From the NCBI GenBank assembly GCA_009927165.1, contig RFNO01000113.1:25152-89151 (forward strand): 64,000 nucleotides of DNA. The letters are read 5' to 3'. Shown here in pieces: positions 10,305 to 64,000 of this stretch. Under the pieces are notes generated by a model. It ran no database searches and had not been told where the DNA came from. It worked only from the letters and a program-made list of their open reading frames with translations. Position 1 is the stretch's first letter. Each line of letters begins with the position of its first letter. A program made the translations under genes and the position numbers. Source of the DNA: Pseudomonadota bacterium (lineage in GTDB: Bacteria > Bdellovibrionota > FAC87 > UBA2466).

Positions 10305-10346
10305 GAGATAAAGAGTACCTAACAGAGATGAGAGTCTTCAACTCTT

Positions 10347-10853: not shown

Positions 10854-11070
10854 CCTTCGCGTTTTGGTTCAAGTTGTTTGCCAAAACGACTCTTCAATTT
10901 CGGTGGGGCATTTCTTACTATTTTACCTGAAGCGGCGAATCACCGCTACTGCGACTTGTTTGAGCCTAACTTGACTGGCTAATTTTTAGTCATTTTTTTG
11001 TCTATCTACTGGCATTCTTTGCATTCTGGCCCCACAATAGAAATTATATTGATCCCAGGAGAGCTATCCC

Positions 11071-12138
11071 ATGAATCAATCTAATGAGAAACAACCCTTT
11101 AATCCTGTAGGTCTTTGCGGAATTGAGTTTATTGAATTTGCTTCTCCTTCTCCCCTCCCACTTGAAAAACTCTTCGTCAGTTTTGGTTTTGCGAAACTTA
11201 AACAGCATTCCTCTTTAAAAGTAGATTATTATCGCCAGCACGACATCCACTGGTTGTTGAACTATCAACCCAATAGTTTTGCCTCTCAATTTGCCCAACT
11301 GCACGGCCCTTCCATATGTTCTATGGGCTGGCGAGTAAAAAATGCAAAAGAAGCACTCAAAATTGCTTGTGAAAGAGGCGCTCGTGCATGTTCTCAATCC
11401 GACTATAGAGACAAACACGGGCATCCCGTACCAGCCATTTATGGGATTGGAGATAGCCTAATTTATTTCATAGACCATTTCAAAGAAGGCAAATGCTACG
11501 AGGAAATGGGCTTTGAGTCTGTAATTAAGGAAGAAGCTTCTTTTAAAACTAAAGGATTTGCCGTCATTGATCATTTAACGAACAACGTACCGAACGGCAC
11601 CATGAGTCAGTGGGCCGATTTCTATAAGAATATTTTTGGTTTTACAGAAGTGCGATACTTCGACATCAAAGGAAAAAAAACGGGACTAACTTCCTTCGCT
11701 TTACGTTCTCCCGATGGAAGCTTTTGTATTCCTATTAATGAAGCCAGTGATGAGAAATCTCAAATCAATGAATATTTGGTCGAGTACAAAGGAGCTGGCA
11801 TTCAACATGTGGCTCTTCTCACTCAAGACATTGTTCGGTCTTTACGAGAACTCAAAGCCGATAATGTCCAAATGTTAGAAGTAGAACCTGACTATTATCA
11901 AAAAGTTTTTAATCGGGTTCCCAATGTGACCGAAAACCATCAAACCCTGCAAGAGCTTGGAATATTGATCGATGGGGACGCAGAAGGCTATCTCCTGCAA
12001 ATTTTTACTCAGAATCTCATTGGCCCTATCTTTTTTGAAATTATTCAACGCAAGAACCACCTTTCCTTTGGGGAAGGTAATTTTGGAGCTCTTTTTAGGT
12101 CGATTGAACGAGACCAAGAGAAAAGAGGGGTTCTTTAA
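11071..12138 (+). CDS. hppD: 4-hydroxyphenylpyruvate dioxygenase
   Basis: Two VOC modules; C-terminal GAGIQHVAL...GNFGALFRSIE matches the HPPD signature. Confidence 0.85.
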   Translation: MNQSNEKQPFNPVGLCGIEFIEFASPSPLPLEKLFVSFGFAKLKQHSSLKVDYYRQHDIHWLLNYQPNSFASQFAQLHGPSICSMGWRVKNAKEALKIACERGARACSQSDYRDKHGHPVPAIYGIGDSLIYFIDHFKEGKCYEEMGFESVIKEEASFKTKGFAVIDHLTNNVPNGTMSQWADFYKNIFGFTEVRYFDIKGKKTGLTSFALRSPDGSFCIPINEASDEKSQINEYLVEYKGAGIQHVALLTQDIVRSLRELKADNVQMLEVEPDYYQKVFNRVPNVTENHQTLQELGILIDGDAEGYLLQIFTQNLIGPIFFEIIQRKNHLSFGEGNFGALFRSIERDQEKRGVL

Positions 12139-12318
12139 CCTTCCTCTCCTTCCCAAAAAGTCACCCATCTTGGCAAAAAGTGACGTTTTTTGGCAGTTTT
12201 TCACCTAAGACCAGCCTAAAAACCTATGAATTCCCATGGCATACAGGTTGCTGTGTTGGACTCTGTTGCGGTCTGGGCCACTTGTGCCTGAGTTGACCTC
12301 GATTTCAAGGAGCTAACC

Positions 12319-13155
12319 ATGGGCCGTCGGAAAAAAACAACGGAAGCAGAATTAGAGAACACACAAACTACTTTGAGTATTGAAGATTCAAACCGAGTTG
12401 AATCAGAAGAAGCTGAACTGATCGCTGAAACTGAAGCCGAAGAATCCCTGGAAATTGATAACGAACATGAAACTGAAACTAAAAAAACTAGCTCCAAAAG
12501 AACCAAAAAAGAAATTTCTGAAATAGATGAAGTCACTGCCGCAGTCGATGCCGCTGAAGCTTCTCAAGAAGCTCCATCGGAACATCAGGAGGAAGTGTCT
12601 CCTAAGCGTAAACCACGAAAACCTCGCGCTAAAAAGACCGATGCTGAAACCGCTGCTCCTCCCATAGTTATTTCGACTGAATCAGTAAACAATATAGCTC
12701 CGGTAATTCCGACTGCTCTGCCTTCCCCCCAACTCGATGACACTTTAAAACAGTGGAACGCAATCAAACAACTTTCTGAATCAGTTGCATTACTTCTTGA
12801 TAAGACTTCCCACTTAAAAAGTTCCAACGACTGTGAAATTAATACAGAACTCCTTCGTCCACAAACACCAAGCCAAAATCTCTTCATTTCTAAATTTGCA
12901 ACTGCGGCTAGCATTGTGGCTATTTTGCTGTCTTTGGTGAGCCTATCTCTTTCTCAATCGGCACGACATGCGGTGCTAGGAGTCATGGATCCGATTCAAC
13001 GATCTCAGTTCACAAACCACTCGAATTCAGCGCTGACTTACTCAGAATCAAAACGAATTAATAGGACAAACCAGTCTGAAAGCGCTAATTTTGAAAACTT
13101 ACGGGAAGCGCCTACATCAAGCTCAAAGAAACTGATGGGAACAAAACGTAAGTAA
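12319..13155 (+). CDS. Hypothetical protein with an acidic disordered N-terminus and a single C-proximal TM helix
   Basis: About 120 aa rich in E/T/S/K, then a hydrophobic segment FATAASIVAILLSLVSLSLS. The antisense ORFs on the minus strand here are shadows of this low-complexity coding. Confidence 0.4.
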   Translation: MGRRKKTTEAELENTQTTLSIEDSNRVESEEAELIAETEAEESLEIDNEHETETKKTSSKRTKKEISEIDEVTAAVDAAEASQEAPSEHQEEVSPKRKPRKPRAKKTDAETAAPPIVISTESVNNIAPVIPTALPSPQLDDTLKQWNAIKQLSESVALLLDKTSHLKSSNDCEINTELLRPQTPSQNLFISKFATAASIVAILLSLVSLSLSQSARHAVLGVMDPIQRSQFTNHSNSALTYSESKRINRTNQSESANFENLREAPTSSSKKLMGTKRK

Positions 13156-13164
13156 CTATCTCAC

Positions 13165-14400
13165 TCAATAAAAGACTATTTCTTTTTTCCAATTGGCCCG
13201 AACTTCACCCACAAGATACAAGCTTCCAGTGACCAACAAGACATCATCGGGATTCATCTTCTGTAGCATTACTTGAACGGCCTTTTGAGGATCGGCCTCA
13301 AAACGAGCCAAAGTCTCATAATCTCCAGCATACTCCCCTCTAGCACGCGAACACTTCGTAAGAGTGATTTCTTTGCAAAACGGTTGAATCATTTTCAACA
13401 TTTCTGACGCATTTTTGTCGGGGCTAAATCCACAAATGCAATAAAGCTCCTGGGCTTTCAATTCTTTGAGAACGTTAGTCAAAGTTTTCATCCCAGCCAA
13501 ATTATGATCTCCCGAAAGAATAACTTTCGGATGTTCCGACACAATCTCGAAGCGACCAGGATGATTCAGCGAGCTGAATGTTTTTTTTAGAACAGTGGTA
13601 TCAATTTCAGGGAAGTTTTCTTTTAGGAACAAGTAAACGAGAGCTGCATTTTTAAGCGCGCCAGAGCTGGGATTTCTCAAGAAAACTTCTTGTCCATCAA
13701 GTTCAACCCATTGTCCATTCCAGGACTTTTCTTTCACATGTTGAGCAACTTGGGTACTTTTGTGAACCGCTATTTTTCGCGGTTCGCAAAACTCTTGAAG
13801 CTGCTTTAGGAGCTCTGGTTGCTCAATTCCCGTTGTTACAGAAACCCTCTCCCGCAATATACCCATTTTCTCACTGAGAATTTTCTCTAAGCTATTACCG
13901 AGATAATCCATGTGATCCCAATCAATATTGGTAATCACTGTTCCCAAGGGATTCGTAACATTCGTCGCATCCAATCTTCCCCCCAACCCAACTTCAATCA
14001 CTGCAAAGTCAGGAGAATTCTGAGCACAATCTAAAAAGAAAACGAGAGTAAGAAACTCAAAGTAGCTCAATTGGTGTTTTTCTGCGAACGGCCAAGCCGC
14101 CTCACAGAGCTTATCGAAGCGCTCTAAAGACCAAGGGACCAATTGTTCAAGAAATCTTTCGGTAAGCAGTTGAAGATGCGGCGAAAGATATGTCGCTACT
14201 CGGTAGCCCTGTAACTGAAGAGCTCGGCTCACTAATAGCGTAGTAGTTCCCTTACCATTCGTGCCCGCAATCACGATAGACTTGAGTCCTGCTTGCGGAT
14301 TTCCCGCGTCTTTTAATGCTTCTTGAAAACGGTCCAAGGAATAATGGATACGTTTTTCTCCTCCTAATTTCTCTAATTTTGTTCTCCAGGAACCTGTCAT
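13165..14400 (-). CDS. folC: Bifunctional folylpolyglutamate synthase / dihydrofolate synthase
   Basis: Mur-ligase P-loop (AGTNGKGTTT) and a FolC-like N-terminus; 411 aa. Confidence 0.85.
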   Translation of the reverse strand: MTGSWRTKLEKLGGEKRIHYSLDRFQEALKDAGNPQAGLKSIVIAGTNGKGTTTLLVSRALQLQGYRVATYLSPHLQLLTERFLEQLVPWSLERFDKLCEAAWPFAEKHQLSYFEFLTLVFFLDCAQNSPDFAVIEVGLGGRLDATNVTNPLGTVITNIDWDHMDYLGNSLEKILSEKMGILRERVSVTTGIEQPELLKQLQEFCEPRKIAVHKSTQVAQHVKEKSWNGQWVELDGQEVFLRNPSSGALKNAALVYLFLKENFPEIDTTVLKKTFSSLNHPGRFEIVSEHPKVILSGDHNLAGMKTLTNVLKELKAQELYCICGFSPDKNASEMLKMIQPFCKEITLTKCSRARGEYAGDYETLARFEADPQKAVQVMLQKMNPDDVLLVTGSLYLVGEVRANWKKEIVFY

Positions 14401-14655
14401 CTTTTAACTAAACCCCGTGTACACAATCGATACAGTTCGAGTCTTTTAATTTCAAGCACTTGCACAAACCGTCTAAAAAACTTTCGGCGAAGTTAGTCGA
14501 GTGTAAACGAGCAGACCACTTGTAAATAAGTATGCAAGCGCCTGAAATTACAATGTTTTCTTTCAGCATCCACTCGTTGGTTTTTGGCAGACCAGTTGCA
14601 TTCTCTCAGAATCATAACGGGGTAATAACTTGTTTAACCTAACTAGGGGGAAGCC

Positions 14656-15519
14656 GTGACAATCGCATCTAACATTTATAATTTTTCGGACTACCGAGAC
14701 TTTCTTAAAGATCGATACAGACAACTTAAGGAAGCAGATCCAGTATTTTCCTTTAGAAACTTCTCTAAAGCTGCGGGCTTTGGTTCACCCAACTACTTGA
14801 AGTTGGTAATGGACGGTAAACGAAATTTGAGCGCAGATGCCATCGGTAAATTCGCCAAAGGACTTCGATTAGATAACCATGAAACAGAATTTTTCCGTTA
14901 CATGGTAGACCATAATCAATGTGAACACCTCCCTCGTAAAAAAGTCTATGAAGCTAAACTGATGTACTTACGAGAACTGTTCAAAGTAAAAACTTTGATT
15001 CCAGAACTCTATGATTATTATCACCAGTGGTATCACTCAGCTATTCGTGAAATGGTCAAAAAAGGCCGCATCAAGAATGAAGCTGCAACTATCGCTCAAA
15101 GCTTAGTACCTGCAATTTCTGAAGAAGAAGCAAAAGGATCAATTTCGCTTCTTTTAAAATTAAAGTTCATCAGCTGCACAGGAGAGTGGCTAGAAGCAGT
15201 AGAAACAGCCGAAATAGACACTCAAACAGCAGCGATGGGCCAAAAAATTCATTACGAACAAATGGCTGAACTGGCTGCACAGTCACTCTATACTCAAGGT
15301 CCAGAAACACAAGACTTTGAAAGTATGACTCTGACTTTGCCGATGGATAAAGTTGCTGAAGTTCGTCGCCAAATTCAAGAGCTCCTCTTAGGGGTAGCTA
15401 GCAATCAAACTCATAACCCCACTGATTCTGTTTATCAGTTGAACATCCAATTCTTTGCGATGACTCGGCCAGTGGAAACAGGAACAACCAAGCAGAAAGA
15501 AGGGGAAGAAGCAGCTTAA
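14656..15519 (+). CDS. Conserved hypothetical protein (possibly the TIGR02147-type paralogous family)
   Basis: 287 aa, GTG start, no identifiable motifs. The N-terminal region DYRDFLKDRYRQLK...FSFRNFSKAAGF resembles that family, recalled from memory and unverified. Confidence 0.35.
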   Translation: MTIASNIYNFSDYRDFLKDRYRQLKEADPVFSFRNFSKAAGFGSPNYLKLVMDGKRNLSADAIGKFAKGLRLDNHETEFFRYMVDHNQCEHLPRKKVYEAKLMYLRELFKVKTLIPELYDYYHQWYHSAIREMVKKGRIKNEAATIAQSLVPAISEEEAKGSISLLLKLKFISCTGEWLEAVETAEIDTQTAAMGQKIHYEQMAELAAQSLYTQGPETQDFESMTLTLPMDKVAEVRRQIQELLLGVASNQTHNPTDSVYQLNIQFFAMTRPVETGTTKQKEGEEAA

Positions 15520-22751: not shown

Positions 22752-24248
22752 TTAAGCATCTTTCTCATGAACTTCTTTTCCATCAAAACTTAACAGCTTG
22801 TTTTGCGAGTTATACTTAGTCATTACATGAACTGGCCTACCCCACACCGCCTGAATATTTTTTAGGGTTTCTACCCCTTTGTCATATTCAAGATCTAAAC
22901 CTTCGTGCTGATGAACCAGTAATAACTCACCTCGGTTTTGGTAATTTCCATCCTCAACGAGAATAACTGGTTGTCCAAAATTCGAAAGTGAGAAGAGCAA
23001 CTGATTCTTCACTTTTTTCCAATCGCGATCGATAATCTCATATTGTCCGGTTCTTCTATTGAATCCATAGGTGAAGAGTTTCTGCTGCTCACAAAATTCC
23101 TCATTCATAAAACTGTCGATAAACGTAACATCATTATGCAGCTTCCGGACCTCAAATACTTTTTGTCGACCCAAACCCAGTTTTTGATCCCACTGCCTCT
23201 TTCGAGTTACATCGTCACACTCATCATATTCCTTTCCAAATCTTCCTTTGTTCCACCGGTCTTCAATATCCCTAAAGAGCTCAATGCCTAGCTTGTAGGG
23301 ATTTAGCTGACCTGGTCGAGTGCTCACGGTGCCACTATGGTGGTCCGCGTAGTCAATTACTTCAGAGTCTTTCAACACATGTTGAGTCATTATGGTGGAG
23401 TGCCAATAGCTAGCCCAGCCTTCATTCATGATTTTGGTAGCCGCTTGGGGAGCAAAATAATACGCTTCTTCTCTAATAATGGATAAAATCTCTCTTTGCC
23501 AATTTTCTAGTGGCGCATAGTTAATCAAAAAAGCCAACACATCCCTTTCAGGCCTCAAGGGAAATTTTCTAGCTTTTTCCTGGCTCTCCCGTATTTTTTT
23601 CTCCTGTTCATCAATAAAAGACCGAGGATTTACGAAACTTTCTAAATAGTCTTTGGTCTCAAATCTTTTAACCCCACTTGCTGCTGCGCTAGTTGCAGGG
23701 CTTTGCAAGAGACTTGGACTCTGGGTGTTTGCTTGCTGCTGAAAAACTGAATACTGATCAATTAAGTTATCTATAGACAAGCAGCGATCAATAAAATCCT
23801 CAACTACTTCGACCCCTAACACATCTTGGTATTCTCGAATTTTTGTTGCATGGTTGGCCATTTCATCCAACATTTTACGGTTTGTCTTAGCGAACCACAT
23901 ATTGTTCTTGAAAAAGTCACAGTGCCCGTAAACATGGGCCATAACAAGCTTCTGATCGACGATCGCATTCCCAGTTTGCAAATAGGCGTAGCAAGGGTCG
24001 TTATTTATTACTAATTCATATATTTTCTGAAGACCGTAAGTATAGGTCTTGTTGAGATAGTCGTACTCCATCCCAAAACGCCAATGCGGATAGCGAGTCG
24101 GATACCCTCCGAGAGCCGCTACTTCGTTAATTTCGTCATAATCAACCAACTCAAATATGATATCGAAAGTATCCAAGCCATAGCCACGTGCTATTTCTCG
24201 GATTTCTTGATGGGCTTTATGCAATTCGGGTGGAAGAATATGCCTCAT
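22752..24248 (-). CDS. spoVR: SpoVR family protein
   Basis: 498 aa with characteristic SpoVR/YcgB conserved blocks (N-terminal HxxxxE region, [17 protein letters not shown]). Overlaps yeaH by 4 nt. Confidence 0.8.
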
Positions 24249-25360
24249 TTTCCCCTTCCGAGAAACTCCTTCAACGATCGATGAATCGCTTCTTTATTCT
24301 CGATCTTTGAAGTAATTAATTTTTCATCTTCTTTAAAGTGCTCCAGTAAATCCTTGATAAATTGACCGCTTCCATAGCGACTTTCCACTTGTCCGTAGCA
24401 AAACAGGTTTACTTTCGGTAGCACATCAGTTTTCAGGAGGTCCACACAAATTTTGGTGTCTTCCGCTGACCAGTTATCTCCGTCACTAAAGTGAAAAGCG
24501 TAAATGTTCCAGTCGTCAGGAGGATATTCTTTTTGAATCAACTCTAAGCAAGTCTTATAAGCTGAACTAATCAGAGTGCCTCCGCTCTCTCTCGTGTGGT
24601 AAAAAGTTCCTTGATCCACTTCTCTAGCTGTCGCATCGTGAATAATGTAACGAATGCTTATATCTTTGTATTGAGAACGGATCCAAGTATCTATCCAGAA
24701 AGATTCAGTTCGTACTATTTCTTTCTGTTCATCACCCATGCTACCCGAGACATCCATCATATAAATAATGACTGCGTTATTCTGGGGTTGAGTAATGTTT
24801 TTCCAGGAACGAAATCTAAAATCTCTCTTTATGGGTATGATGACAGGATTTTTAGGATCGTAGTGACCTGCGATAATTTGCCTTTTCAAAGCCTCACGGT
24901 ATGTTCGTTTTAAGTGCCGGAGGCTGTTGGGCCCAATCTGACGGATTCCGGTATATTTATTTTTTTGCGATGAAAGACTCCCTTGCCCCTTTGGTGTAAT
25001 TCTAGGAAGTTCAAGCTCCTGAGCAAGCATATCCGCCAACTCCTGAAGCGTGACTTCCACTTCGAGCGAATGCTCACCTTCACCGCTTCCCGCTTTCTGT
25101 GACCCTTCTTGACCATCATTTCCTAAGGGGGTACCGGCCGAACCATCACCTGAACCAACTCCACCCGCTTGCTTCTTTCCAAATCGGAAATGGGGAAGAT
25201 CAATTTGGTGGACGGGAATGCTTACATAGTCCTTGCCTTGGCGACCAACGATTTCGCCTTGGGTTATATACTTCTTAAGATTCTGCTTAATCTTTCCCTT
25301 AACGATCTGCTTGAACCGCTGGTGATCCCGTTTAATTCCGGTAATCATAAGATGGACCAC
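24245..25360 (-). CDS. yeaH: YeaH/YhbH family protein (DUF444, vWA-like)
   Basis: 371 aa in the UPF0229 pattern: an N-terminal Gly/Ser-rich region and a C-terminal vWA-like MIDAS-type segment (MDVSGSMG). Sits between prkA and spoVR. Confidence 0.75.
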
Positions 25361-25395
25361 TCCTCATTGGACCTCGAGAGGTACCTTAAAATTGT

Positions 25396-27471
25396 CTATT
25401 TTCTCTTTACATCGCCTCTTGCAAAAATCGATGCTACGAAATTTAAGACATCCGTAGCGCTCACTTCGTCATACCCATAGTTTTTTATAAGTCTTGCTTT
25501 AACAATATCTATTTTGGCTTGCGTGTTCGCATCAACGACATTCGACACTAAACTTGTCAGTTTGATTGTGTCTTTTTGATCTTCAAACAATTTTAATTCC
25601 AGGGCTTTGTGAAGTCGTTCATTGGTTTTGTAATCGAACTGACGACCTTCGAGTGCCAAGGCCCCGATGTAATTCATGATCTCACGTCGGAAATCATCCT
25701 TGCGACTATCGGGGATATCTATTTTCTCTTCGACAGAACGCATGAGTCTCTCATCGGGCTCCTCATCTTGGCCAGTAAATTTGTTCTTTACTCGCTCTCT
25801 CTGAGTATAGGCCTTCACGTTATCGATATAGTTGCCACACAAACGAGCCATTGCTTCCTCATCTGCTGATATAGCCCGCTGCACTTCACTTTTAACAACA
25901 TCTTCGTATTCCTGTCTCACTACTGCTAACAACTCACGATAGTGTTTGCGTTTGTCCTCAGACGAAATAAGAGAATGATGTCGTAGTCCCGATTCGAGTT
26001 CATTGAGGACCATAAAGGGATTCAATGAAGCAACAGCACCGTCTTTCGTGTTCACAAGTGCGTTGGAGATTTTATCCTGGATGTATCTTGGAGAAATCCC
26101 TTCCATTCCTTCTCTCACTGTCTCTTTTCTCAGCTCACGAACGTTGTCCTCGGTGAAGCCGGGAAGAGTCTTTCCATTGTATAGCTTGAGTTTCTGTAAG
26201 AGGGATAGATTATGTTTTTTGGGTGCCTCTAAGCGAGTCAGTACGGCCCACATGCTCGCCATTTCAAGTGTGTGTGGTGCAATACTCGCTTTAATTTTTC
26301 TTGGGTTGAAGTCCTTACGATAGATTCTGACTTCTTCAGCAAGTTTAGTGCAGTAAGGTATGTCAATTTTCACTGTACGATCTCGAAGTGCTTCCATGAA
26401 TTCGTTGTTCTGCAACTTTCGATATTCAGGCTCGTTCGTGTGTCCAATAATCACTTCATCGATGTCCATCTGTGGGAATTTTTTGGGTTTAATTTTGTGT
26501 TCCTGCGAGGCCCCCAACAGATCATAGAGAAACGCCACATCTAATTTAAGCACTTCAATGAATTCCAAAATTCCCCGATTGGCGACGTTGAATTCACCAT
26601 CAAAATTAAAAGCTCGAGGGTCCGAATCAGAGCCATATTCTGCGATTTTTCGGTAATTGATGTCTCCCGTAAGCTCTGTTGAGTCTTGATTCTTTTCATC
26701 TTTTGGCTGGAAGGTTCCAATACCAATTCGATTTTTTTCAGAAAGAATAAGACGAGTAACGATCACATGATCGACTACTTTAGTCCAATCACCACTATAG
26801 TGTTGCATCAGTCGATCGTAGATAAATTGCATTGGAGGAGATAAGTCTCCATCAATGACTACTCGATGCCCTTCTTTCCTTCCGCGATTTATTTCCTCTG
26901 CAAATTTCTTCCTAAATTCTTGTGGGATTAACTTAAGGGGATCCTCATTCATTGGACTACTGAATTCTTGTTGTCCATTCAGTACCTCTCGAGAGAGAGC
27001 TTCGTTCTCAATTCGAAATCGGAATGTGTACATGGCTCCTTCGTCGGTTTGTGCGTACCATTCCACTCCCTTTTTAAGCATTCGAGCGATGGTGCTTTTG
27101 GCACTTCCTACAGGACCATGAAGCAAAATAACCCGCTTTTCGGGGCCATAGGACTGGGAAGCTGCTTTTAGCGTGTTGACCAGCTTCTGGAGATGGACAT
27201 CAATCCCAAACACCGCATCTTTTCCGTTTTCGATGGGATCCTTAAAGAAATTGTAGGAAGTTATCTTCTTTTTAAACTCGACGTATTCCTCTGTCCCGAA
27301 ATGACTTATGCAATCGTAGAGTCGTTGAAAGGCATTTCGAGTTATTTCCGGACGTTCTTTTACCATTTCAATATATTGCTGAAAGGTACCTTCCCACTTA
27401 ATTTTTTTATAGCGGTCTAGATCCTGTAAGCTACCGATAAAATTTTTGATATCCATCGCTGAAGAAGACAT
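25396..27471 (-). CDS. prkA: PrkA family serine protein kinase (AAA+ / kinase-like)
   Basis: 691 aa with a Walker A motif ([12 protein letters not shown]) and PrkA-type N- and C-terminal domains. Confidence 0.85.
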
Positions 27472-35111: not shown

Positions 35112-36989
35112 GTGTTTTCTACGATTCATTTTTTTCAGTCAGCACAAGAACTACCCGGACTTTTTGATTCTTTCTTCTCAGGAATTTTTCTCGTGCGGGG
35201 TTTGGCTATTTTTTTCCAAGTTGGATTGCTCTCGGCTTTCGCGCTTACCCTTTTTTCTTCTTATCGTTTTTCTCTTCAACCCAGTGGTGCATGGAAACGG
35301 TTAGCGAGCGGCGGCGCTTTCCTGACATTGGTTCTATCTGCGTTTTTGATTTTTCAACCTTGGGATGAACTTTTCATTTTCCTTCGGCATTCAAAACATC
35401 TGGCAGAAAACGGTATTTTTTCGTTCAACCGATTTGAAAAGAGCGAGGGGATTGTTGATTTCCTTCCCTTTTTTGTTTTGGGACTGCTCGCAAAACTAGG
35501 CCTGCCTCTGCTGGAGACCAATTTTGCGTTTGGAATCCTGGGCTCTTGGCTTTGCGTGACTGCAGCAAGACGTTTACTTATTGAACTCAAAGTGAAAGGT
35601 GCAGAAGTTTGGGCCTATCCCTTACTGGTTGTTTACCCTCCCCTTCTCTTAAACATGGGAAATGGTTTTACCGTTCTTTTATTTACTGCTTCTCTTTTAT
35701 GGAGTTTGAACTTTCTTTTCTTTGACAGAAAACCAGTGGCGGGTTGGTTTCTATTGTCCTTAGTACCGCTAATTCGGATCGAAGGATTGTGGTTTACTCT
35801 ACTTGTCTTAGTTTTCTCATTCAAAACGAATCGATTTCCCCCCAACAAATCTCTTCACGTACTGATTTCAATTGGTGTCTTTATTCCTGCTTTTTTTCTT
35901 ACCCTCTGGAGATTACGGTACTTTGGTCATTATCTCCCTGTACCAGTCCGCTACAAATCAGCTATCGGTAATGGCTTTTACGCACTTATTGGCGCTCGAA
36001 ATCTTTTTCTGGACCTCCTGGCCAGCCTTTCGGTCATATTTATCTGGCATTGGTTTATATTTCCGAAACAACGAGTTCAAAATAACGAGCAACTTAGGTT
36101 GGCATTCAAACTCTGGGGGCTGCTCCTCATTTTTTGTATGCCCTATTACTTTTCAGGAGGAGATTGGTTTCCTCCAGCTTGGGGAAGGTACTTATTTCCC
36201 TTTTCGTTTTTTGGATTTATTTTGTTTATCACTTTATTTGAAAGCTGCTCAACTGATGTCTTTAAGAGACAATCATACTTTCAGCTTTTAAATGCTGTTC
36301 TGTTAATCATTCTGACTTTACTTCCCTTTGGAAGCATCTCTAAATCCTTCGAAGTACTTTTTACACCAAAGAAAAGTTTGTCAGGACTCCATCAAAAAAA
36401 GACAGGTAAAAGCAATTTTCGACTTCAGCAACTCTCTCAGCTAGGAACCCATTTAAAGAATACTACTTCTCCAACTGCTCAAATTGCATCTTCTGAATTG
36501 GCTACCATTATGTATTTTGCCGAACGAGAAACCTTGGACTTATTGGGGGTTACCAATTCCGATATTGCTTCCTCACCGTTGCGTACTCCACCTAAACTTT
36601 TTTCCAAAGCCACTCGACGAAATGAACTTCCCTACTTAATTTTTAAGCGACTTAAACCTGAGTTAATTGCAGAAAAAAGACCGTCTATTGTTTATGCTTT
36701 TGATTTTCTGGTTACCGATCTCATCGAAAATAGGGAACTAGAAGAAATTAATGATTCGGATATTTTTTTGGCTCTTTCAAGATGGGAGCGCAGATTTCAA
36801 GGACTTAACGATGAACTTTTTGGTGGAATGACTGAGCTCAAACGAATCGGCTATGCTCCAGTAGTAGTCAAATATGGAGTTTCTTTTTACGCACTCTATT
36901 TCGTATCACCACAAGAAAAGGAAGATCACTTCCAGAGGATGAAGCAACATGGACTGATTGGCACTTTGATTAGGAATAATCGTCTTTAA
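35112..36989 (+). CDS. Large polytopic membrane protein (N-terminal multi-TM half, C-terminal ~230-aa soluble half), possibly a GT-C-like glycosyltransferase
   Basis: 625 aa, at least 10 TM helices, and a DE-containing loop after the early TMs (FQPWDELFIF). No precise family match recognised. Confidence 0.3.
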   Translation: MFSTIHFFQSAQELPGLFDSFFSGIFLVRGLAIFFQVGLLSAFALTLFSSYRFSLQPSGAWKRLASGGAFLTLVLSAFLIFQPWDELFIFLRHSKHLAENGIFSFNRFEKSEGIVDFLPFFVLGLLAKLGLPLLETNFAFGILGSWLCVTAARRLLIELKVKGAEVWAYPLLVVYPPLLLNMGNGFTVLLFTASLLWSLNFLFFDRKPVAGWFLLSLVPLIRIEGLWFTLLVLVFSFKTNRFPPNKSLHVLISIGVFIPAFFLTLWRLRYFGHYLPVPVRYKSAIGNGFYALIGARNLFLDLLASLSVIFIWHWFIFPKQRVQNNEQLRLAFKLWGLLLIFCMPYYFSGGDWFPPAWGRYLFPFSFFGFILFITLFESCSTDVFKRQSYFQLLNAVLLIILTLLPFGSISKSFEVLFTPKKSLSGLHQKKTGKSNFRLQQLSQLGTHLKNTTSPTAQIASSELATIMYFAERETLDLLGVTNSDIASSPLRTPPKLFSKATRRNELPYLIFKRLKPELIAEKRPSIVYAFDFLVTDLIENRELEEINDSDIFLALSRWERRFQGLNDELFGGMTELKRIGYAPVVVKYGVSFYALYFVSPQEKEDHFQRMKQHGLIGTLIRNNRL

Positions 36990-43521: not shown

Positions 43522-45213
43522 TTAAAGTTTATCTTTAAATGAGAACGTGCGCTGGTGCTCTTTGTCCAGTTTCTGAGCCCACTTGAGATAGAGTTCTTGG
43601 GCTCCCTGCTCGAAATTAGTGCTGAATAACTTCATCAAAACCGCAGGAGGGAGTTCTTTTTGTAAGAAAAGCGAGTAAATACCTTCCCCGAGGAGTTTTC
43701 CTAAGAGTTTTGCCACTTTGTGGATCAAGATTACGTCAACAAGAGAGGGGTTTGCCCACTTTAAAAAGTAGGGCAAAGGCGGGGTACCTCGCTTTCGAAA
43801 GTAATTCCTCTCGGCTAAAACATGCGTGTGGGCTAATTGAAGGGCTTTTGAGGTTGCAGATAAGTGCTTTTCGGGAGCATGGAAAGCAGCTTCAAAGTCT
43901 AAAGAGCCGTGGCACTTTCTTTTTGGATTGATAATTTTGGAACCGAAAAATCCGAGTGCTTCTACCCAAACAAAAGCATAAAAGTCCCTGCTGGGAACTT
44001 CAAAAACTCCCCGAAAACCACTTAACTTAGAGTGTATAAACTGGGCTGACAAACTAGCTACATGGTTTATTTTTAAATTTCCCAGATAGAATTTCTGCCC
44101 CCGGTAAAAGAACTGGCTTTGAAACTCTTTAAGACCTCTTGACAGAATTCTGATTTCTTGCGGCTGATAATCTCCAGTTTTCACCATTTTCTGTAAAAAG
44201 CCGAAATCATGCGGACCGAAAACCTCAAGGTTTCTATAATCCTCTTCAAAACTCTCTTTTAGCCCCAAAAACTTTTTCATGGCCTCAATCACGTCCATAA
44301 TTTCTTGAGTATGGTCTAGAGGCTCCCCGAGCTCTGCTAATTGCTCTCGCCAGAGCATTTTTCTTTCTACCCCCTCACTGCTGGAAAGCACCTCTACCCA
44401 CTTCAAGTGACTTTGAAGTTTGAGCCATGGGGGAGTATTGAGCACACAAAAAACCCCTTTTTTCAATTTCACCACTTCAGCTTGATGCTCCATTTTTTTC
44501 TTCACCATTTTCCAGTAAAGCCACTCGTGATTTTGGTGAATAACCAGGAGCTTTTTGGAAAGTTCCCGCGTCTCCATTTCCAACTTCAGAGCATGCGGGA
44601 GGTGATGCTTGGCCAGATGAAGGTCACCCATTAAGCAAAACACAACACCACTGGGCTCCTTTTGAGCCCAGTGAGCAATTACTTTAGCCGCAAATACATC
44701 CCGGTCTGCAAGACTTGACGGCTGCGAGGGGCTTAATCCCACTACGGGAATCCGAAATTCTTTCGCTAGTCTGAGAAGAGGCGCATAGTTCCCCCAACTG
44801 AACCCCCAATCACCAAAGGAAACGGCTCTCAAAAACTCCTCTTCCGTTATTTCTGAACGCAAGTATTGTTGAATCCGAAGGTTGTGTTTCGCTTTAAAAA
44901 TTTCCATCGCTAAGTAGATGGGTTTTTTCTCTTTTTTGAGTTTTGGGATGATTTCTCGTAGAATTCGAATAAGGGTTCTTTGTGCTTGTGACAGGCTGTG
45001 GTAATCTCCGCACAAAATTATTTGGGACTTTTCAACCTCAGATAACAGCTCGGATTTATGGATGATTTTCTCATATTTTCTGAAGTCCCGTTGATAATCC
45101 AAGTAGTATTTTCTTAGCTGCGGTGGAAGGTTGCCGAAGTAGGCTTGAGTTGAACGATTGAACCGTTTAGTCAAGTACTTCTGGCAATTCAGTAAGCGCG
45201 AACGAGGGACCAT
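43522..45213 (-). CDS. Hypothetical protein with an N-terminal ChaN/Tiki-like domain and a ~300-aa uncharacterised C-terminal region
   Basis: An ILCGDYHSL...LMGDLHLAKHH pattern resembles the GEXH / His-cluster of ChaN-TraB-PrgY-Tiki proteins. Weak call. Confidence 0.3.
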   Translation of the reverse strand: MVPRSRLLNCQKYLTKRFNRSTQAYFGNLPPQLRKYYLDYQRDFRKYEKIIHKSELLSEVEKSQIILCGDYHSLSQAQRTLIRILREIIPKLKKEKKPIYLAMEIFKAKHNLRIQQYLRSEITEEEFLRAVSFGDWGFSWGNYAPLLRLAKEFRIPVVGLSPSQPSSLADRDVFAAKVIAHWAQKEPSGVVFCLMGDLHLAKHHLPHALKLEMETRELSKKLLVIHQNHEWLYWKMVKKKMEHQAEVVKLKKGVFCVLNTPPWLKLQSHLKWVEVLSSSEGVERKMLWREQLAELGEPLDHTQEIMDVIEAMKKFLGLKESFEEDYRNLEVFGPHDFGFLQKMVKTGDYQPQEIRILSRGLKEFQSQFFYRGQKFYLGNLKINHVASLSAQFIHSKLSGFRGVFEVPSRDFYAFVWVEALGFFGSKIINPKRKCHGSLDFEAAFHAPEKHLSATSKALQLAHTHVLAERNYFRKRGTPPLPYFLKWANPSLVDVILIHKVAKLLGKLLGEGIYSLFLQKELPPAVLMKLFSTNFEQGAQELYLKWAQKLDKEHQRTFSFKDKL

Positions 45214-58219: not shown

Positions 58220-58999
58220 TTAAATTGAAACGGCGTTAACCATCAAATCAGCCATAATCGGTAAATGATCGGATAATACAGCCCACTTTTTTCCCTGGAG
58301 ACAGGATGCTGATTTCATAGTGGCATGTCGAAAATAAATTCTATCTAGCTGTAAAATGGGAAGACGACTGGGAAAAGTTCTCGCATGATTATTTTTTAAA
58401 CTAACGAAAGCTTCATCTACTTTTAGCCGTTTGGTCAGCTCATGAGTGACCCGTTGTCTCCAATCATTAAAGTCCCCAGCAATTAAAAGAGGACAAGAGG
58501 GATCAATCGTTTTTTCAACATAATTCACTAATTCTTCGGTTTGCTTTCTTCTCTCGAATTGAAATAGTCCCAAGTGAGCATTCAGGGCATGAACAACGAA
58601 ATCACTTTTGTTTTTTTCTCCAGGGATGTGAATGACCCCATGGAGAACCCCCCTTTTTTTTAGTTTTCCGATAGTAATATCTTTCAAAGTAAAACCTGAA
58701 ATCGGATAACGACTCATAATGGCGTTGCCATGATGGTGCATGCTGAAAATCACATTTTTTTGATAAGCGAAATGGGGCCACATTTCATCCGCTAACCCCT
58801 CTAACTGATGAGCAACTTTTTCTGGCCAGAGCCGACTGCTTTTTTCTAAGGAACTCCCAGCAACTTCTTGCAAAAAAACAATATCAGGCTGCAGGGATTG
58901 AAGTGCTTCTTTGAGGATTGTAAGACTTAAACGATTTCTTCTTACTGTTATTCCTTGATGAATATTGTAAGACAAAACTCTCAGGGAGAACTTTTTCAT
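58220..58999 (-). CDS. Endonuclease/exonuclease/phosphatase (EEP) family protein
   Basis: 259 aa with the EEP pattern: N-terminal SYNIH, FLQEV, and C-terminal SDHLPI. Confidence 0.7.
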   Translation of the reverse strand: MKKFSLRVLSYNIHQGITVRRNRLSLTILKEALQSLQPDIVFLQEVAGSSLEKSSRLWPEKVAHQLEGLADEMWPHFAYQKNVIFSMHHHGNAIMSRYPISGFTLKDITIGKLKKRGVLHGVIHIPGEKNKSDFVVHALNAHLGLFQFERRKQTEELVNYVEKTIDPSCPLLIAGDFNDWRQRVTHELTKRLKVDEAFVSLKNNHARTFPSRLPILQLDRIYFRHATMKSASCLQGKKWAVLSDHLPIMADLMVNAVSI

Positions 59000-59043
59000 T
59001 CTTTTTTATCTTACTGTCCGAAACTCCATTGAAACAAGCTGCA

Positions 59044-59080
59044 ATAAAAAAGGCCCATTCTTTTTCAGGAAATGGGCCTT
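59044..59080 (-). terminator. Rho-independent (potentially bidirectional) terminator downstream of the 59098-60015 gene
   Basis: AGGCCCATT / AATGGGCCT 9-bp stem flanked by A-run and T-run. The minus strand reads stem then TTTTTTT. Confidence 0.5.
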
Positions 59081-59097
59081 TAAGACTCTTTTTTGTA

Positions 59098-60015
59098 TCA
59101 TCCGCCTGTGTTGCAGTTCACCATACCACCCGAGCAATCACAGTTTAGCTTTTTGATGTCCTCTGCGGAAAGTCCACGGTCTTTATAAAGTTTGTTTAGA
59201 GCTGCCTCTCCGGCTTCCTGCGCTTGAGCTAAACTTTTTCCCTTGCCGAGAGTTTGATTAAACGCTGTAGCAAAGACACTAGCTTGAGTTGCTCTACCTT
59301 CGAGCATAATTTTCCCTGTCTCAGGATCGTTTTTGAAAGCATTCAGGACTTGCTCCATTTCTACTTTTAAAGAGTCCGGATTTTGGCGGAAAGCTACCAG
59401 CATGTTAGCAATAAAATCGGCTTCTTTGATCCCAGATGCTTTTAATGCTTCCTTTACTTGTTTATCATTCAGAACGGTTTTTACGAAATTTTGAATTTTT
59501 TCAAAAACCTCGGCATCTAAAACTTTTGTGGAGCCCAACTCTTGTTGTTTCATGAGAAGCGCGATTGCCTGTTCAATTTTGGAACGAGTCGCTTCGTCGA
59601 CTTTAATCCCATTTGCCTCAAGCTCATTAGTCACTGTTTTCATCAGCTCAACGACTTTAGTGGAATGAGCATCTCCGGCTGCCGCGACTTGTTTTAATCG
59701 TTCGACTTCGCCCTTAAGGCCATCAGGGAAGGATACTTCTCTCTCTTTGGCTTTTTGCTGATAATCCACTGGGATTTTTCCAAAAAGAGAATCCACTGGA
59801 CGGTTCTTGGTGCCTTGAGAGCTTGAGGGAGCTGATGACGCGTGGGGGGTCTTTTCAGGTGAAGCAGCTTTTGGTTTTACTGCTGGGGCAGGAGCAACAG
59901 TTTTAGGAGCATGCGCTTTAGGAGTTTTGCTTTTCGTGTTCACTCCGGCAGAAAACGCCAAAGAAGGAAGCACTACGCAAACAACTAAAGATCGACTGAA
60001 AAGAGTTCTAACCAT
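59098..60015 (-). CDS. Secreted hypothetical protein with Ala/Pro/Lys-rich N-terminal region and C-terminal Cys motif (CDCSGGMVNCNTGG)
   Basis: Signal peptide, a low-complexity PKAxAPK region, a helical domain and a terminal CxC-x6-C. Confidence 0.4.
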   Translation of the reverse strand: MVRTLFSRSLVVCVVLPSLAFSAGVNTKSKTPKAHAPKTVAPAPAVKPKAASPEKTPHASSAPSSSQGTKNRPVDSLFGKIPVDYQQKAKEREVSFPDGLKGEVERLKQVAAAGDAHSTKVVELMKTVTNELEANGIKVDEATRSKIEQAIALLMKQQELGSTKVLDAEVFEKIQNFVKTVLNDKQVKEALKASGIKEADFIANMLVAFRQNPDSLKVEMEQVLNAFKNDPETGKIMLEGRATQASVFATAFNQTLGKGKSLAQAQEAGEAALNKLYKDRGLSAEDIKKLNCDCSGGMVNCNTGG

Positions 60016-60321
60016 GATTGGGGCCCTTTTTGATTGAGTTTGAAAAAGTATTTAATCATTTTACCCAATCACTTCTCAAATTTCTTTACCTTTCTACTCG
60101 TCCCTTCGCTCCAGCCCATTCATAACTGTTTTCGAGAGGGGGCTTAAACTTTAGACAGTTGTTTACGGTTTGGGTTTCCGTATTGCACACGCTGCGACAC
60201 CCTTTTAAGCCGTTAAAGCCAACGATTTAAATACTTGTTTTTATTGTACTTTTCATCATCAAAAATGGGGGGATCGGCACAGTTGATGCAGCTTAGGTAG
60301 GAGGAACTTTAAACCGAAAAA

Positions 60322-63300
60322 TGAAAAAGGGGATCAGTCACGATTATGCGTTGCGTCTATCTGATAAAACATGATGTTCTGAGAAAGCTCATTCTCGCTC
60401 TTGTTTTTGTCAGTATGGCCCCTTCTTTTGTTGCTGTCGCCGATTCCACTCACGATTCCTCGACAGATAAGACTCAAAAAAGACGGCCCCGAATTGCTCC
60501 CTACTGTGAGAAGCGAACCAATAAAAAAAATGTTCTCGATGTACTTTTTAATAATTCAACCGGTAATACGGTAAACTTCAATCAACTGTTTCCAAACTCA
60601 GAAGACCAGGAATTTCCCTTAGGACGTTCGCCGGAAAGCAAAGATAGAAAATCTCTTGCGCCTTTTAATCCTCAGACGACTCTCAGCTTTTTTGAACAAC
60701 TTATCCGATGCGAATCCCCCTCACTTTATAAACTCTCGGTTCTTGAGTCGCTACAGGAGACTTGCAGTGAACAAAACTCTAGTATTGGGGTGCAAAATCA
60801 GAAAATTGTTTGCGAACTCGTCCAAGCTTTTGGCGTGCTGAATGCCCTACCTGCTGATTTCAATTTGTCTCTTGCAGATCAAGTTCAACAATTTATGAAA
60901 ATGGGCTCAATCGAAGCAGAGCCCCTGAGTTCGATCCTGAAAAACATAGATAAGATTCGAAGTGAAAATACAAGCAGTACCGATTTGGAACTTCTCAGAG
61001 CCTTGCTTTTTGGAAAAATGTTCGGCGGGTTCATGGGTGCAATCGACTTTTTTGTAGGGCCCGATGTTGCAGAAGCACTGAGACAACGATTTCTTTTGGG
61101 ACCTCCCTCTGCTGCCGACAAAAACTCAGCTTCCTTCCTCCCCAGCAACTCGAAATATTTCCTAAACCAGAATCCTCCTCCGCATAAGGACAACCCAGCT
61201 ATTCAGGAATGGATGAAAGGGTTATCGAATCTGCTCAACCAAAGAGAACAGTCTCCTGAAAAAGCGACCCAAGCTTTTTCCCAGCTTAAAAGTGCGATTG
61301 GGAAACTGGACTCTTTGTCACCTCAAGAGCACGCTCAGTTCAGACGATGGGCCCTTGAAAGACTGGTTGAAACACAATCAGGACAAATAAGCAGCTCGTC
61401 TTCAGCTCCTCATCAAAACGTCTTCAGCTCGCTACAGCATTCATTAATCAACACTTTAAAACGACTCGACACTATTTCCTCAGATTCTGGCGATGAACAA
61501 GTAAATTCAGGCTACCCAGCATTGCTTATGGAAGAATCCAAGCTTAATCACGCTCTTTCCCCATCTGAAAAAAAAGAATTGGACGAATTAGAATACTTTT
61601 TTAAAAACAGCCACAAATCTTCCCTGAACTCAATGAGCCGAATTGCTCTCATGAGTTTAACTGAACAACAACGGCACTTCCTTTTAGAGCTCACCAAGCA
61701 CCCCTCTGCTTCTCAAGATACTCATTTGAAATTTTGGCTCACTGAGCCGAATCCGAAATGGATTTCCCAAGCCCAGCAACTGCTGTCCGACAAAGATAGT
61801 TCTTCAAGGTATTTAGCTAATTTGAGTGAACGCTTTTCTGAAGAGGTCTTGGGTCACCCACTGCCTATAACCAGCAAGATTAGATTACTAGCGCTCGATC
61901 ACGATTCACGAGAAAAACTTAATCGATTGATGGGCATTTTAAAGAAGGATGACCCAAACACTCACAGCTTAATGGAACGCCTGCTCAAGAACGGATCTGC
62001 ATCAGAAATTGAAGCGGCTTCTCAACTCTACGACTCTGCTTTCCATCAGTATTCGACTCATTTCAAACAGAGTAGATTACGAGAAAGGTTTATTTCCGAC
62101 CTTGTTAGTAATGGGAAATTGACTGGAGAAAGCGAGAGAGAGCTGGACTTGTTAATACAAGACATTGCTCAAAGCGAGTCCAATGGGAAAACGTCTTCCG
62201 AACTAAAACAGCAATTCTTAGAGCGCCTCAAAGAAGAAGCTTCGTTTAAAAAGAAGCATGGGGGGGCACTCAGGGATTTTGCGGATACTCTAACCGGAAA
62301 GATTTCCAGCTCCTCCTCCCATACAACCAATGACTGGCGAGCAGCCCTGGTTCGAAAACCCCCTTCTGCGCTCTCTGAATCCGAAAAGAAAGCCCTTTCT
62401 CTTTTCAAGGAAAATGACCACCTTGCGGAGACTTTTAGAAAGACCCAGCAACGACTGTCTGAGGAGCTCCATCGCTGGTCACGTGCACTTGAACGAAGCA
62501 CTTCGGAAACTGATCAACAAAAAGCAACTCAGAAAATACAGGAGCTGGGAAAAGTTGCAAAGGAAGAACAAGCTCGTTTCTTAAAGCTTATCCAAGAGAA
62601 TGAGCTTATTGTGTCCTCACTAAAACAAAATCAGGATCTTCCTATTGTCGAACGCGCCTATGAGTTTATGGAACAGCATCAAGTTTCACCTGAGATGGCA
62701 GACATAGTTTTTTCTCAACTAAGCGAACTCATGGGACGCAATCAAAGACGGGACCGTTTGTTTCAGGCGAGTATGGGTCAATCGTCCGGAGCATTCAAGC
62801 CTGCAACAGATGCAGCTAGAAACCTTTTCGCTCAGGAGGAACATTCCGTTCGGGAGCTTTATTCCAAAGCGGAAAATACACTGCCGGCTGGTTGGCTAGA
62901 AGCCCAAAACACTGCAAGCGAGCAAAAGAAACAGAGAGATTCAAAACGAAAACTCGTTTTTGACCAATTAGCCGAATTCGGAGTGAAAACACAAGCTGGT
63001 TCCGAACAACTAGATTTTTCTCAAGTTAACCTGGTAAACAAAAACCTCGATCGATTCAAATCCCTTTTGTCGGAATATAGAAAGACTGTGGGATCAAATG
63101 AACTCGATGCTCCAGATTTTTGGGATGTCTTTCAGGGCCAGTTAGAAACCCTCTACAGTGGCTCTGACCATTCGAATGTCTTTGCTTTTAACGAAAGCAT
63201 GGCTATTCGCGCAAAAAGAATCCCCCTTTCTGATCAAAAGGAACCCTGGAATGAAGGAGGCCTCGATCGGGTTGAGTTTGAGTTCGTAGATGGAAAGCAG

Positions 63301-64000
63301 TTGTCTGCTGAACTGAAAGAAAAATCTGCTGCTCTTAAAACCAATCTAGACAGGCGCCTAAGTCTGATTAAATCTACGACAAGCACCATCAACGGTCTGA
63401 GTGTTGCCATGGAAGACGTTCCTCGAGCATTCATCAAATCGTGGACTGGGCTCGACATTTCCAAATATTACCAACCGTACGGCCTTGCCACACAACTTCA
63501 CGGTATCGAATGGGGACCAGAGGGACCCACCACTTACACTCAAAGAATGCTTGAGCGAGACTTAAACCAGGAAATAAAGCTCATACAAGATTTAAGAAAA
63601 CTTGGAAATCTTCCAGTTGATTATGTAGTTCCGGGACAAAAAACTGTAAAGATACCAGCTTATCAGTATGCAGATCTCATGGAGAACCGCGCAGTTCTTC
63701 TGGATCGATTTCACGGACAGGAATTGAATAGCTTACTTCGTGACCTGGATTACACGATAGCAGGAATGGAATTGGGTCAAGAAGCGGGGATTGCTGCAGG
63801 GGTAACCCTAGCGACTATGGGCATGGGTACGGCCATTTCGGGTACGGGACTCGCTTTAAAAATTGGAAGAGCAGCTTCACTTCTCAATTCGGCAGTCGGT
63901 GGAAGTCGATTAGCTCTGCAAGCTGCGGCAGTGGCTCAAAGAGCATCCCCTCTAGCGATGAGAACGCTTCAGTATGGTCGCGGACTCGGGACGATGAGTT
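60322..64000 (+). CDS. Very large secreted / membrane-interacting hypothetical protein, 3' truncated by the window end (at least 1226 codons, no stop reached). Absent from the supplied ORF track.
   Basis: Manual translation of the frame starting at ATG 60322 (an in-frame TAG lies upstream at 60298-60300) shows no stop codon through nt 64000. AGGAGG sits 16 nt upstream. N-terminus has a basic n-region plus a hydrophobic LILALVFVSMAPSFVAVA segment. The last ~70 aa in the window are a Gly/Ala-rich hydrophobic segment. Confidence 0.6.

Follow-up and report, generated by a model that had tools for sequence, protein, structure and literature searches.

A giant, predicted exported protein and two partner proteins as a candidate portable envelope cassette of an uncultured Bdellovibrionota-like lineage

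We analyze the giant gene that closes a 64,000-nt stretch of DNA (contig RFNO01000113.1, assembly GCA_009927165.1; hereafter the window) and put forward the view that it occupies the middle of a portable envelope cassette of three genes, flanked by a divergent gene for a small secreted protein (up305) and a downstream gene for a lipoprotein (dn376). In the reading we favor, to which we assign a probability of about 0.45, the product of this gene is a Sec-exported helical rod that is held at the membrane by its C-terminal third and acts with its two exported partners as an accessory envelope complex. If it functions as proposed, the cassette would be a new envelope module of three components with, at its core, a giant exported protein that has no detectable characterized relative. 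It would provide a testable candidate mechanism by which freshwater bacteria of uncultured Bdellovibrionota-like lineages construct or arm their surface, and would be a case in which a periplasmic 5'-nucleotidase fold has been recruited as a non-catalytic (or Cys-based) partner. It constitutes a well-delimited lead, with no specific activity indicated.

The giant gene is genuine. The original prediction, made by a model from the letters of the window, had described an uninterrupted forward frame running from an ATG at 60322 to nucleotide 64000 and encoding at least 1226 residues. Between 60325 and 64000 the frame is indeed free of stop codons; the program-made list of open reading frames (ORFs) lacks it because the frame leaves the window end before any stop. 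The start had been misplaced. Three-frame translation locates that ATG at 60321-60323, in another frame, where it opens a 17-codon ORF (60321-60374, forward strand; MKKGISHDYALRLSDKT, then a stop), while nucleotides 60322-60324 read TGA in the long frame; the N-terminal peptide previously reported is a splice of the two frames. The first in-frame start is the ATG at 60346, with GGGGA 13 nt 5' of it, and the product begins with MRCVYLIKHDVLRKLILALVFVSMAPSFVAVADS. The window holds codons 1-1218 of the gene (60346-64000, forward strand), and about 1.15 kb extends past its end, full-length copies having 1602-1605 codons. The whole gene is recovered at positions 10001-14818 of a 227-kb ENA scaffold (L001), and the protein encoded in the window is identical to NBX93653.1 (P0001; 1602 aa), a 'hypothetical protein' from a metagenome-assembled genome (MAG) labelled 'Proteobacteria bacterium'.

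Comparison of window positions 60346-63999 with L001:10001-13654 yields 14 nucleotide differences, nine synonymous and five non-synonymous, which fall 3, 2 and 9 times on the first, second and third codon positions. This synonymous excess between strains, the identical database protein and the existence of homologs aligned over nearly their full length show that the giant is a real coding gene under purifying selection. A spurious open frame or pseudogene, in whose favor only the wrongly assigned start can be cited, is excluded by the same third-position bias, by 1218 codons without a stop at 43-45% GC and by full-length homologs at about 25-28% identity. The gene also concentrates strain variation: it accounts for 14 of the 19 differences found over 13.6 kb while making up 27% of the aligned length (binomial P = 2.7e-5), and four of its five non-synonymous changes lie at codons 799-970. 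Relaxed selection, diversifying selection or a patch of recombination could each account for such clustering. The three ENA copies (P0010-P0012) differ from P0001 only in the last ~25 residues (aa ~1578-1602) and in length (1605 versus 1602 aa), which looks like the outcome of a 1-nt indel or frameshift close to the 3' end, be it strain variation or assembly error.

The case for a cassette rests on conserved gene neighborhoods. The gene order in L001 is EEP, up305 (both on the reverse strand), giant, dn376, lipo114 and PFK (all on the forward strand). In two further lineages (L082 and L083) the neighbors of the giant are a divergent gene of 305-314 aa and one of 336-339 aa in the same direction, homologs of up305 (blastp E 4e-21 and 2e-30) and of dn376 (E 9e-45 and 4e-38), respectively. 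The three genes hence stand in the same order and orientation in three lineages among different flanking genes, the L082 cassette, for example, lying between purM and a group of pyruvate-dehydrogenase, lipoate and ferredoxin genes. Conversely, a sister MAG (L002) retains the flanks of the L001 locus in order, at 53-91% amino acid identity (MTase, ELFV dehydrogenase, methylmalonyl-CoA mutase, MurJ, FHA/TPR and EEP genes on one side; lipo114, PFK and radical-SAM genes on the other), and tblastn finds none of up305, giant and dn376 in it. The 7.4 kb at L001 8637-16082 correspond to ~170 bp in L002 (9567-9734), delimited by blastn matches between L002 8214-9566 and L001 7251-8636 and between L002 9735-11145 and L001 16083-17500. 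The left part of this three-gene block occupies window positions 58981-64000, and its right junction falls within ~10 nt of the dn376 stop codon. More broadly, what lies between EEP and the lipo114-PFK operon varies: the cassette here, ~170 bp in L002 and unrelated genes in four more distant MAGs (L003-L006).

These comparisons also redraw the limits of the unit. The EEP gene and the Cys-motif gene (up305) had been described as a divergently arranged pair preceding the giant; both lie on the reverse strand, separated by a strong intrinsic terminator (59043-59081, reverse strand; 12-bp stem and U-tract, fold energy -16.4 kcal/mol, z -1.9). Because this terminator ends up305, the gene should not be co-transcribed with EEP, which would need a promoter of its own in the remaining ~45 nt. 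What stands of the earlier description is that the Cys-motif gene is divergent from the giant and linked to it. EEP was considered as a cassette member and rejected; it is kept in L002, where the three genes are missing. The promoters of up305 and the giant are presumed to lie in the 330-bp divergent region between them (60016-60345), where the gene arrangement places them; no match to the sigma-70 consensus was found in that region.

As an indel relative to the sister species, the block could be a phage or mobile-element remnant, the giant being for example tape-measure-like. Tape-measure proteins are long and helical and carry Gly-rich hydrophobic segments, so that a superficial likeness to the giant exists. 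This explanation is effectively refuted by the absence of PHROGs matches for the giant, the lipoprotein and the fourth gene found in some cassettes (see below), up305 giving only a marginal hit to a family of unknown function (E 0.002); by tblastn searches that left the giant unmatched among 50,697 phage and 72,556 plasmid records; by viral contigs, among which the giant has no relatives; by the lack of an integrase, tRNA or terminal repeats flanking the block; and by Sec signals on all products together with a host-like GC content. An inverted repeat at the block ends was examined as possible transposon termini and discarded, one arm being the T-tract of the up305 terminator and the other native flank that is also present at the empty site.

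Both partner genes encode proteins predicted to be exported. The up305 gene (59098-60015, reverse strand), whose homologs in L082 and L083 likewise diverge from the giant, encodes a secreted protein of ~305 aa in which a signal peptide is followed by a Pro/Ala/Lys-rich linker, a helical body and, at the extreme C-terminus, a C-x-C-x6-C tail with invariant C291, C293 and C300. It has no Pfam or PDB match, and in PADLOC only marginal ones (E 1e-3), to helical regions. The dn376 gene lies just past the window end (L001:14824-15954). Its product has a conserved lipobox without Asp at +2, as in an outer-membrane-type lipoprotein, and the conserved motifs FFFTQxRxxELxPCGCSxxPKGGV, GPxFSPD, GFxW[LV]SxN, LxLTN and PxxFLG. 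Although below Pfam detection, dn376 as a five-sequence profile finds the N-terminal metallophosphatase domain of E. coli UshA (E 1e-7), CpdB (6e-5) and the Thermus thermophilus 5'-nucleotidase (3e-4) in the PDB. The likeness covers ~100 residues of that domain, including the FPxLSANI motif (FxW[LV]SxN in dn376), and the proteins would share an extracytoplasmic location, which is a prediction for dn376. The differences are substantial: the motif I region of UshA/CpdB is replaced by an invariant R..EL.PCGCS..P.GG, with R38, E41, P44, C45, G46, C47 and S48 invariant and no conserved D-x-H there; the His of GNHE faces Asp/Glu and that of THM faces Asn; and a C-terminal substrate-binding domain of the UshA/CpdB type is missing. 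Judged from these alignments, dn376 is a homolog of the UshA/CpdB fold and not a canonical enzyme, because the catalytic histidines and the D-x-H are missing despite the fold homology; it could be a pseudoenzyme or carry a Cys-based metal site. In L082 (15332-16426) and L083 (7204-7407) the cassette has a fourth gene, absent from the lineage of the window, for a 364-aa secreted protein without Pfam or PDB match; its C...GGHAWIEF...D pattern may point to a likeness with transglutaminase-like cysteine proteases.

Scanning metagenomes with the alignment of the lipoprotein revealed two more loci, both distant (27% identity). In L085 the lipoprotein adjoins a giant ORF of at least 2604 aa and in L086 one of 2419 aa, and each locus also encodes, next to these, a helical secreted protein whose C-terminus carries a cluster of Cys. 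The 2419-aa giant of L086 is a weak match to that of the window (blastp 2e-4; hhalign probability 27%, on the signature motif described below) and shares its layout, with an uncharged run at relative position 0.78, an acid-free run and the DxNxDG motif twice. The L085 giant was rejected as a family member for want of the signature motif and of an acid-free region, and the small Cys-tailed proteins of both loci were rejected as up305 homologs (hhalign probability <2%). Directly after each trio lies a gene for an S41 CtpB-like PDZ peptidase (L085:11035-12576 and L086:18530-20041, both on the reverse strand; 66% identical between the loci), and an Omp85-superfamily gene is found upstream in L086 (5526-8465, forward strand).

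The giant itself is strikingly isolated, in a setting where orphan giant proteins are common in MAGs. When residues 404-1602 were run exhaustively with phmmer against 1.84 billion cluster representatives, the only matches besides the query protein were two unnamed singletons of Logan assemblies: P0013, of 1446 aa (E 5e-35), and P0014, of 1600 aa (E 8e-23). They are 27-28% identical to the giant and align over almost the full length. No family in Pfam-A matches P0001 (E up to 10) or P0013 and P0014 (E up to 0.1). NCBIfam and PHROGs hold no match for the giant and its homologs, PADLOC none for these or for the lipoprotein, and a PDB sequence-profile search came back empty for the giant and for its C-terminal part. 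A scan of genome contigs with the giant gave no match, and neither did a scan of metagenome contigs with the giant alignment, for which the patterns chosen were poor. Word-index protein searches, for which the queries were the window fragment, the last 470 aa of the protein and a three-sequence profile, yielded only P0001 or nothing; we do not count them as negatives, because such searches are unreliable for low-complexity or Gly-rich queries, the Gly/Ala-rich C-terminal fragment having missed its own parent and the profile containing P0013 and P0014 having missed both. The possibility that the giant is an ordinary S-layer protein or adhesin finds no backing: Pfam and NCBIfam give no sign of a C-terminal beta-barrel, a two-partner secretion (TPS) domain, an SLH domain or adhesin repeats, and the C-terminus is predicted as helical by AlphaFold2 (AF2), at low confidence. 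At the sensitivity of three-sequence alignments and weak models, the giant and up305 are without detectable characterized relative, and the cassette lies outside known kinds in the sense that no known family or system matched; a good structure may reveal a divergent known type.

The anatomy of the giant begins with a predicted Sec signal peptide (aa 1-32, 60346-60441, forward strand) consisting of a basic n-region, the hydrophobic core LILALVFVSMAPSFVAVA and A-V-A before D33, the cleavage site being assigned by the AxA rule at the level of a motif. This leader is the strongest hydrophobic peak of the protein (2.14 on the Kyte-Doolittle (KD) and 1.82 on the Goldman-Engelman-Steitz (GES) scale), and hydrophobic N-terminal leaders are also present in P0013 and P0014, so that the export proposed in the original prediction is upheld by a signal-peptide-like N-terminus in all three family members. 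The only two family-invariant cysteines, C54 and C122, follow at 60505-60711 (forward strand); past the first ~160 residues P0001 and P0013 have no cysteine, save two in the frameshifted C-terminal tail of P0001. We infer a single C54-C122 disulfide, which would fit an extracytoplasmic location. Residues ~35-869 are rich in Ser, Glu, Lys, Gln and Leu, poor in Gly and the least conserved of the protein (22-25% identity), with lineage-specific insertions. Residues 870-1145 (62953-63780, forward strand) are modelled as beta-hairpins and long helices in a three-helix-bundle-like arrangement, the only part with moderate model confidence. In agreement with the earlier description, the giant has no meaningful tandem or internal repeats; a candidate 92-residue internal repeat, suggested by three DxDxDG motifs spaced 92 aa apart, was dismissed for lack of self-similarity, two of the motifs lying in insertions specific to P0001.

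The conserved part of the giant is centered on its C-terminal third. The Gly/Ala-rich stretch noted previously is present at aa 1147-1171 (63784-63858, forward strand; AGIAAGVTLATMGMGTAISGTGLAL), as 25 uncharged residues of which 68% are Gly, Ala, Ser or Thr in a glycine-zipper-like pattern. P0013 and P0014 have equivalent uncharged runs, 18-19 residues long, and the relative position is 0.67-0.71 across the family. The segment opens an acid-free, Gly/Ala-rich region punctuated by Arg and Lys (aa 1147-1235, 89 residues; 63784-64000 and 51 nt further past the window, forward strand), which is the longest acid-free run of the protein. The same holds for the other members (89, 75 and 81 residues in the three) and for the L086 giant (84 residues); these regions contain 30-41% Gly+Ala and 6-8 Arg/Lys, and their length is reached in only 0-10 of 2000 shuffles. 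A signature, W/Y-K-x-A-x-x-x-G...LD-x-N-x-DG-[IV]-PDG, follows 85-100 residues after the segment (16-58 in L086). It includes a DxDxDG-type loop (aa 1269-1277) that all three members share and that the L086 protein also has; more conserved motifs come after it, namely TNLVWASPVDD and GFVxMTGQKANGAWDA. The 'bilobed' character formerly ascribed to the hydrophobic stretch is not borne out, as one uncharged segment is conserved and the second lobe (aa 1327-1348) is peculiar to this species.

Membrane contact of the Gly-rich segment is plausible on these grounds. By GES-trapezoid, on a GES/TopPred-style scale, the segment scores 1.34-1.82, equal to each protein's own signal peptide and above the 1.0 'certain' cut-off. 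Two to three weaker GES peaks occur in the C-terminal third; past the leader, the N-terminal ~1100 residues are peak-free except for a weaker one at aa 219-239 of P0001. In each of the three members the flanks carry a net charge of -2 to -3 before the segment and +2 to +4 after it, the pattern that an N-out/C-in anchor would show. The giant resembles a bitopic type I membrane protein in its basic n-region, hydrophobic core and AxA site (at motif level), and in a positive-inside asymmetry in 3/3 members. The stretch whose membrane-insertion-like character had been noted is conserved, exceeds chance in length and plausibly contacts a membrane; the hydrophobicity scales disagree on whether it is of transmembrane grade.

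The same data speak to a membrane-unrelated alternative, in which the giant is a soluble periplasmic or surface structural protein and the Gly/Ala-rich acid-free region a packed helical core or a binder of peptidoglycan or another polymer. The continuous helices that AF2 draws through this region (confidence 30-45 across the C-terminal part), the ability of Gly/Ala-rich helices to pack closely in soluble bundles and a positive Hessa-type sum are in its favor. We nevertheless deem it unlikely: an uncharged run of 18-25 residues within 75-89 acid-free residues containing 6-8 Lys/Arg would be highly unusual for a soluble core, the feature is conserved despite ~28% identity, the GES score of the segment equals that of signal peptides, and the model is of low confidence exactly in the Gly-rich region.

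In the favored reading of a membrane-held envelope rod, the signal peptide would be cleaved and the fast-evolving N-terminal ~1100 residues would lie in the periplasm as an elongated, spectrin-like helical rod with one disulfide. The C-terminal third would then hold the giant at a membrane, in the simplest case that of the producer's own envelope, with the Gly-zipper helix inserted and cationic amphipathic helices lying on anionic lipid. There the giant would form an accessory envelope complex with its two partners, the outer-membrane-type lipoprotein and the small Cys-tailed protein; the role of this complex may be among scaffold, tether, adhesion or attack. Anchoring in the own envelope is ranked first because it needs no extra secretion route and because the charge asymmetry fits it.

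Several observations weigh against this picture. The description of the N-terminal 869 residues as a helical rod derives from composition, and AF2 models of regions of the giant reach a predicted local distance difference test (pLDDT) score of 50 and 60, with values that fall under 50 in the Gly-rich segment and in most of what follows. In the distant L086 protein the flanking charges are the other way round. The KD19 value of the segment, 1.33-1.46, lies below the classical 1.6; a simple Hessa-scale sum gives +3.3 to +3.5 kcal/mol for two members (A and B), and in the third (C) the segment is not even the best-scoring one outside the leader (best window +5.7). The KD and Hessa scores imply that the segment would be poorly retained by SecYEG, favoring full export over anchoring, and the DxDxDG-type calcium loop downstream suggests that the C-terminal part is extracytoplasmic as well. 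A physical interaction of the three products, finally, is deduced from their conserved linkage.

Resemblances to helical rods and calcium-binding proteins are of a general nature. Matches of the giant to spectrin-like and syntaxin-Habc-like rods (plakin, spectrin repeats, the MG491 central domain) are generic for three-helix bundles, at pLDDT 60 and 5-11% identity, and those proteins are cytoplasmic whereas the giant is predicted to be exported. A Foldseek search of the PDB with the weak AF2 model of aa 870-1602 gave only alpha-solenoid noise. With the DxDxDG calcium loops of thrombospondin type-3-like and EF-hand-like proteins the giant shares a motif-level resemblance, its NLDxNxDG[IV]PDG being invariant in the family and present twice in L086; the two extra copies of P0001 lie in lineage-specific insertions.

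The Gly-rich stretch had also been likened to the membrane-inserting segments of pore-forming toxins, translocators and effectors, a likeness for which no homologous family and, with low-confidence models, no matching fold was found. The giant and the ClyA/Hbl alpha-pore-forming toxins, IpaB/YopB/SseC translocators and Tde1/Tse-type type VI secretion system (T6SS) effectors are alike in being largely helical with a glycine-zipper-like, marginally hydrophobic segment, and its gene is likewise accessory. Yet the giant is three to four times larger, shows no sequence similarity to them, nor a fold match from its weak models, and has one conserved hydrophobic helix instead of a hairpin, and the corresponding Pfam families (HlyE, Bacillus_HBL, Colicin pore, SseC/IpaB, TcdB pore-forming, Gly-zipper) went unmatched in the whole Pfam-A scan. 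It also carries a Sec signal instead of relying on type III secretion system (T3SS) or T6SS delivery, and no secretion-system genes are nearby. For effectors of T6SS, contact-dependent inhibition (CDI) and Rhs toxin modules the lack of a Sec signal would be expected, while the giants all have N-terminal hydrophobic leaders.

These comparisons bear on a further account, that of a released effector, in which the whole protein would leave the cell, its Gly-zipper/cationic C-terminal domain would insert into the membrane of prey or a competitor, and the lipoprotein would protect or chaperone the producer in an immunity-like fashion. Its marginal hydrophobicity is typical of proteins that pass the producer's translocon, and glycine zippers have been experimentally tied to the passage of a T6SS effector across target membranes (PMC10240207); a Sec signal, however, is atypical for T6SS or T3SS cargo, only one hydrophobic helix is conserved, with no hairpin, and neither the sequence nor, in the weak models, the fold matches a toxin, translocator or pore-former. 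The cassette is accessory, patchy and portable, as an effector locus might be, but no genes of type I, type II, type V (T5SS) or type VI secretion systems, PAAR/VgrG/Hcp, Rhs/YD or CdiB/TPS were called within 10 kb in L001, L082 and L083, and outer-membrane-crossing secretion machinery is found next to none of the cassettes examined. A periplasm-facing lipoprotein is encoded immediately downstream, although at 336-403 aa and UshA-like it is unlike known immunity proteins. A conserved 'business end' at the C-terminus behind an N-terminal part that evolves fast, and the 14 of 19 strain single-nucleotide polymorphisms within the giant gene, would also suit an effector. The host relatives include a MAG labelled Bdellovibrionota; the predatory lifestyle invoked by the original prediction is nonetheless an assumption drawn only from kinship to uncultured MAGs, that one among them, and the phylum comprises >1,120 genomes but 12 known isolates (PMC12724312), with deep-branching members that have other traits and lifestyles (PMC13200544). 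On balance, release as an effector appears rather unlikely, though it ranks second after anchoring and ahead of the soluble reading. The more specific proposal that uncultured Bdellovibrionota-like bacteria possess, in this cassette, a previously unrecognized and horizontally portable weapon or attachment system of the envelope is improbable. In it, the Sec-exported giant rod would deliver its Gly-zipper/cationic C-terminal domain into the membrane of another cell, with the PCGCS lipoprotein, as a pseudoenzyme derived from a 5'-nucleotidase, serving as protector or chaperone and the Cys-tailed protein as adaptor; it would represent a membrane-targeting effector class with no relation to the toxin and secretion families known so far.

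The kinship of the host was gauged with the conserved PFK gene, 1.5 kb downstream. The nearest genomes by this marker are all MAGs: L002, from Lake Lanier, at 91% identity, five (L003-L007) at 76-78% and one (L008) at 70%, followed by others at 55% or less. L003-L007 are labelled Deltaproteobacteria, Pseudomonadota or, for L006, Bdellovibrionota, and by this placement the host is an uncultured Bdellovibrionota-like lineage. The rest of the window is ordinary chromosome, with genes for SdhA, FtsK, PrkA/SpoVR, SerA, PilT and methylmalonyl-CoA metabolism. Scans of the window for tRNA genes and Rfam families gave no match, and two large ORFs (35112-36989, forward strand, 625 aa; 43522-45213, reverse strand, 563 aa) have no NCBIfam match at E<=1e-5. 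Genes of the SpoVR family (22752-24248) and for a PrkA-family kinase (25396-27471) flank a 371-aa ORF (24245-25360) on the reverse strand, and window positions 22752-27471 look like a conserved PrkA-YeaH-SpoVR stress operon.

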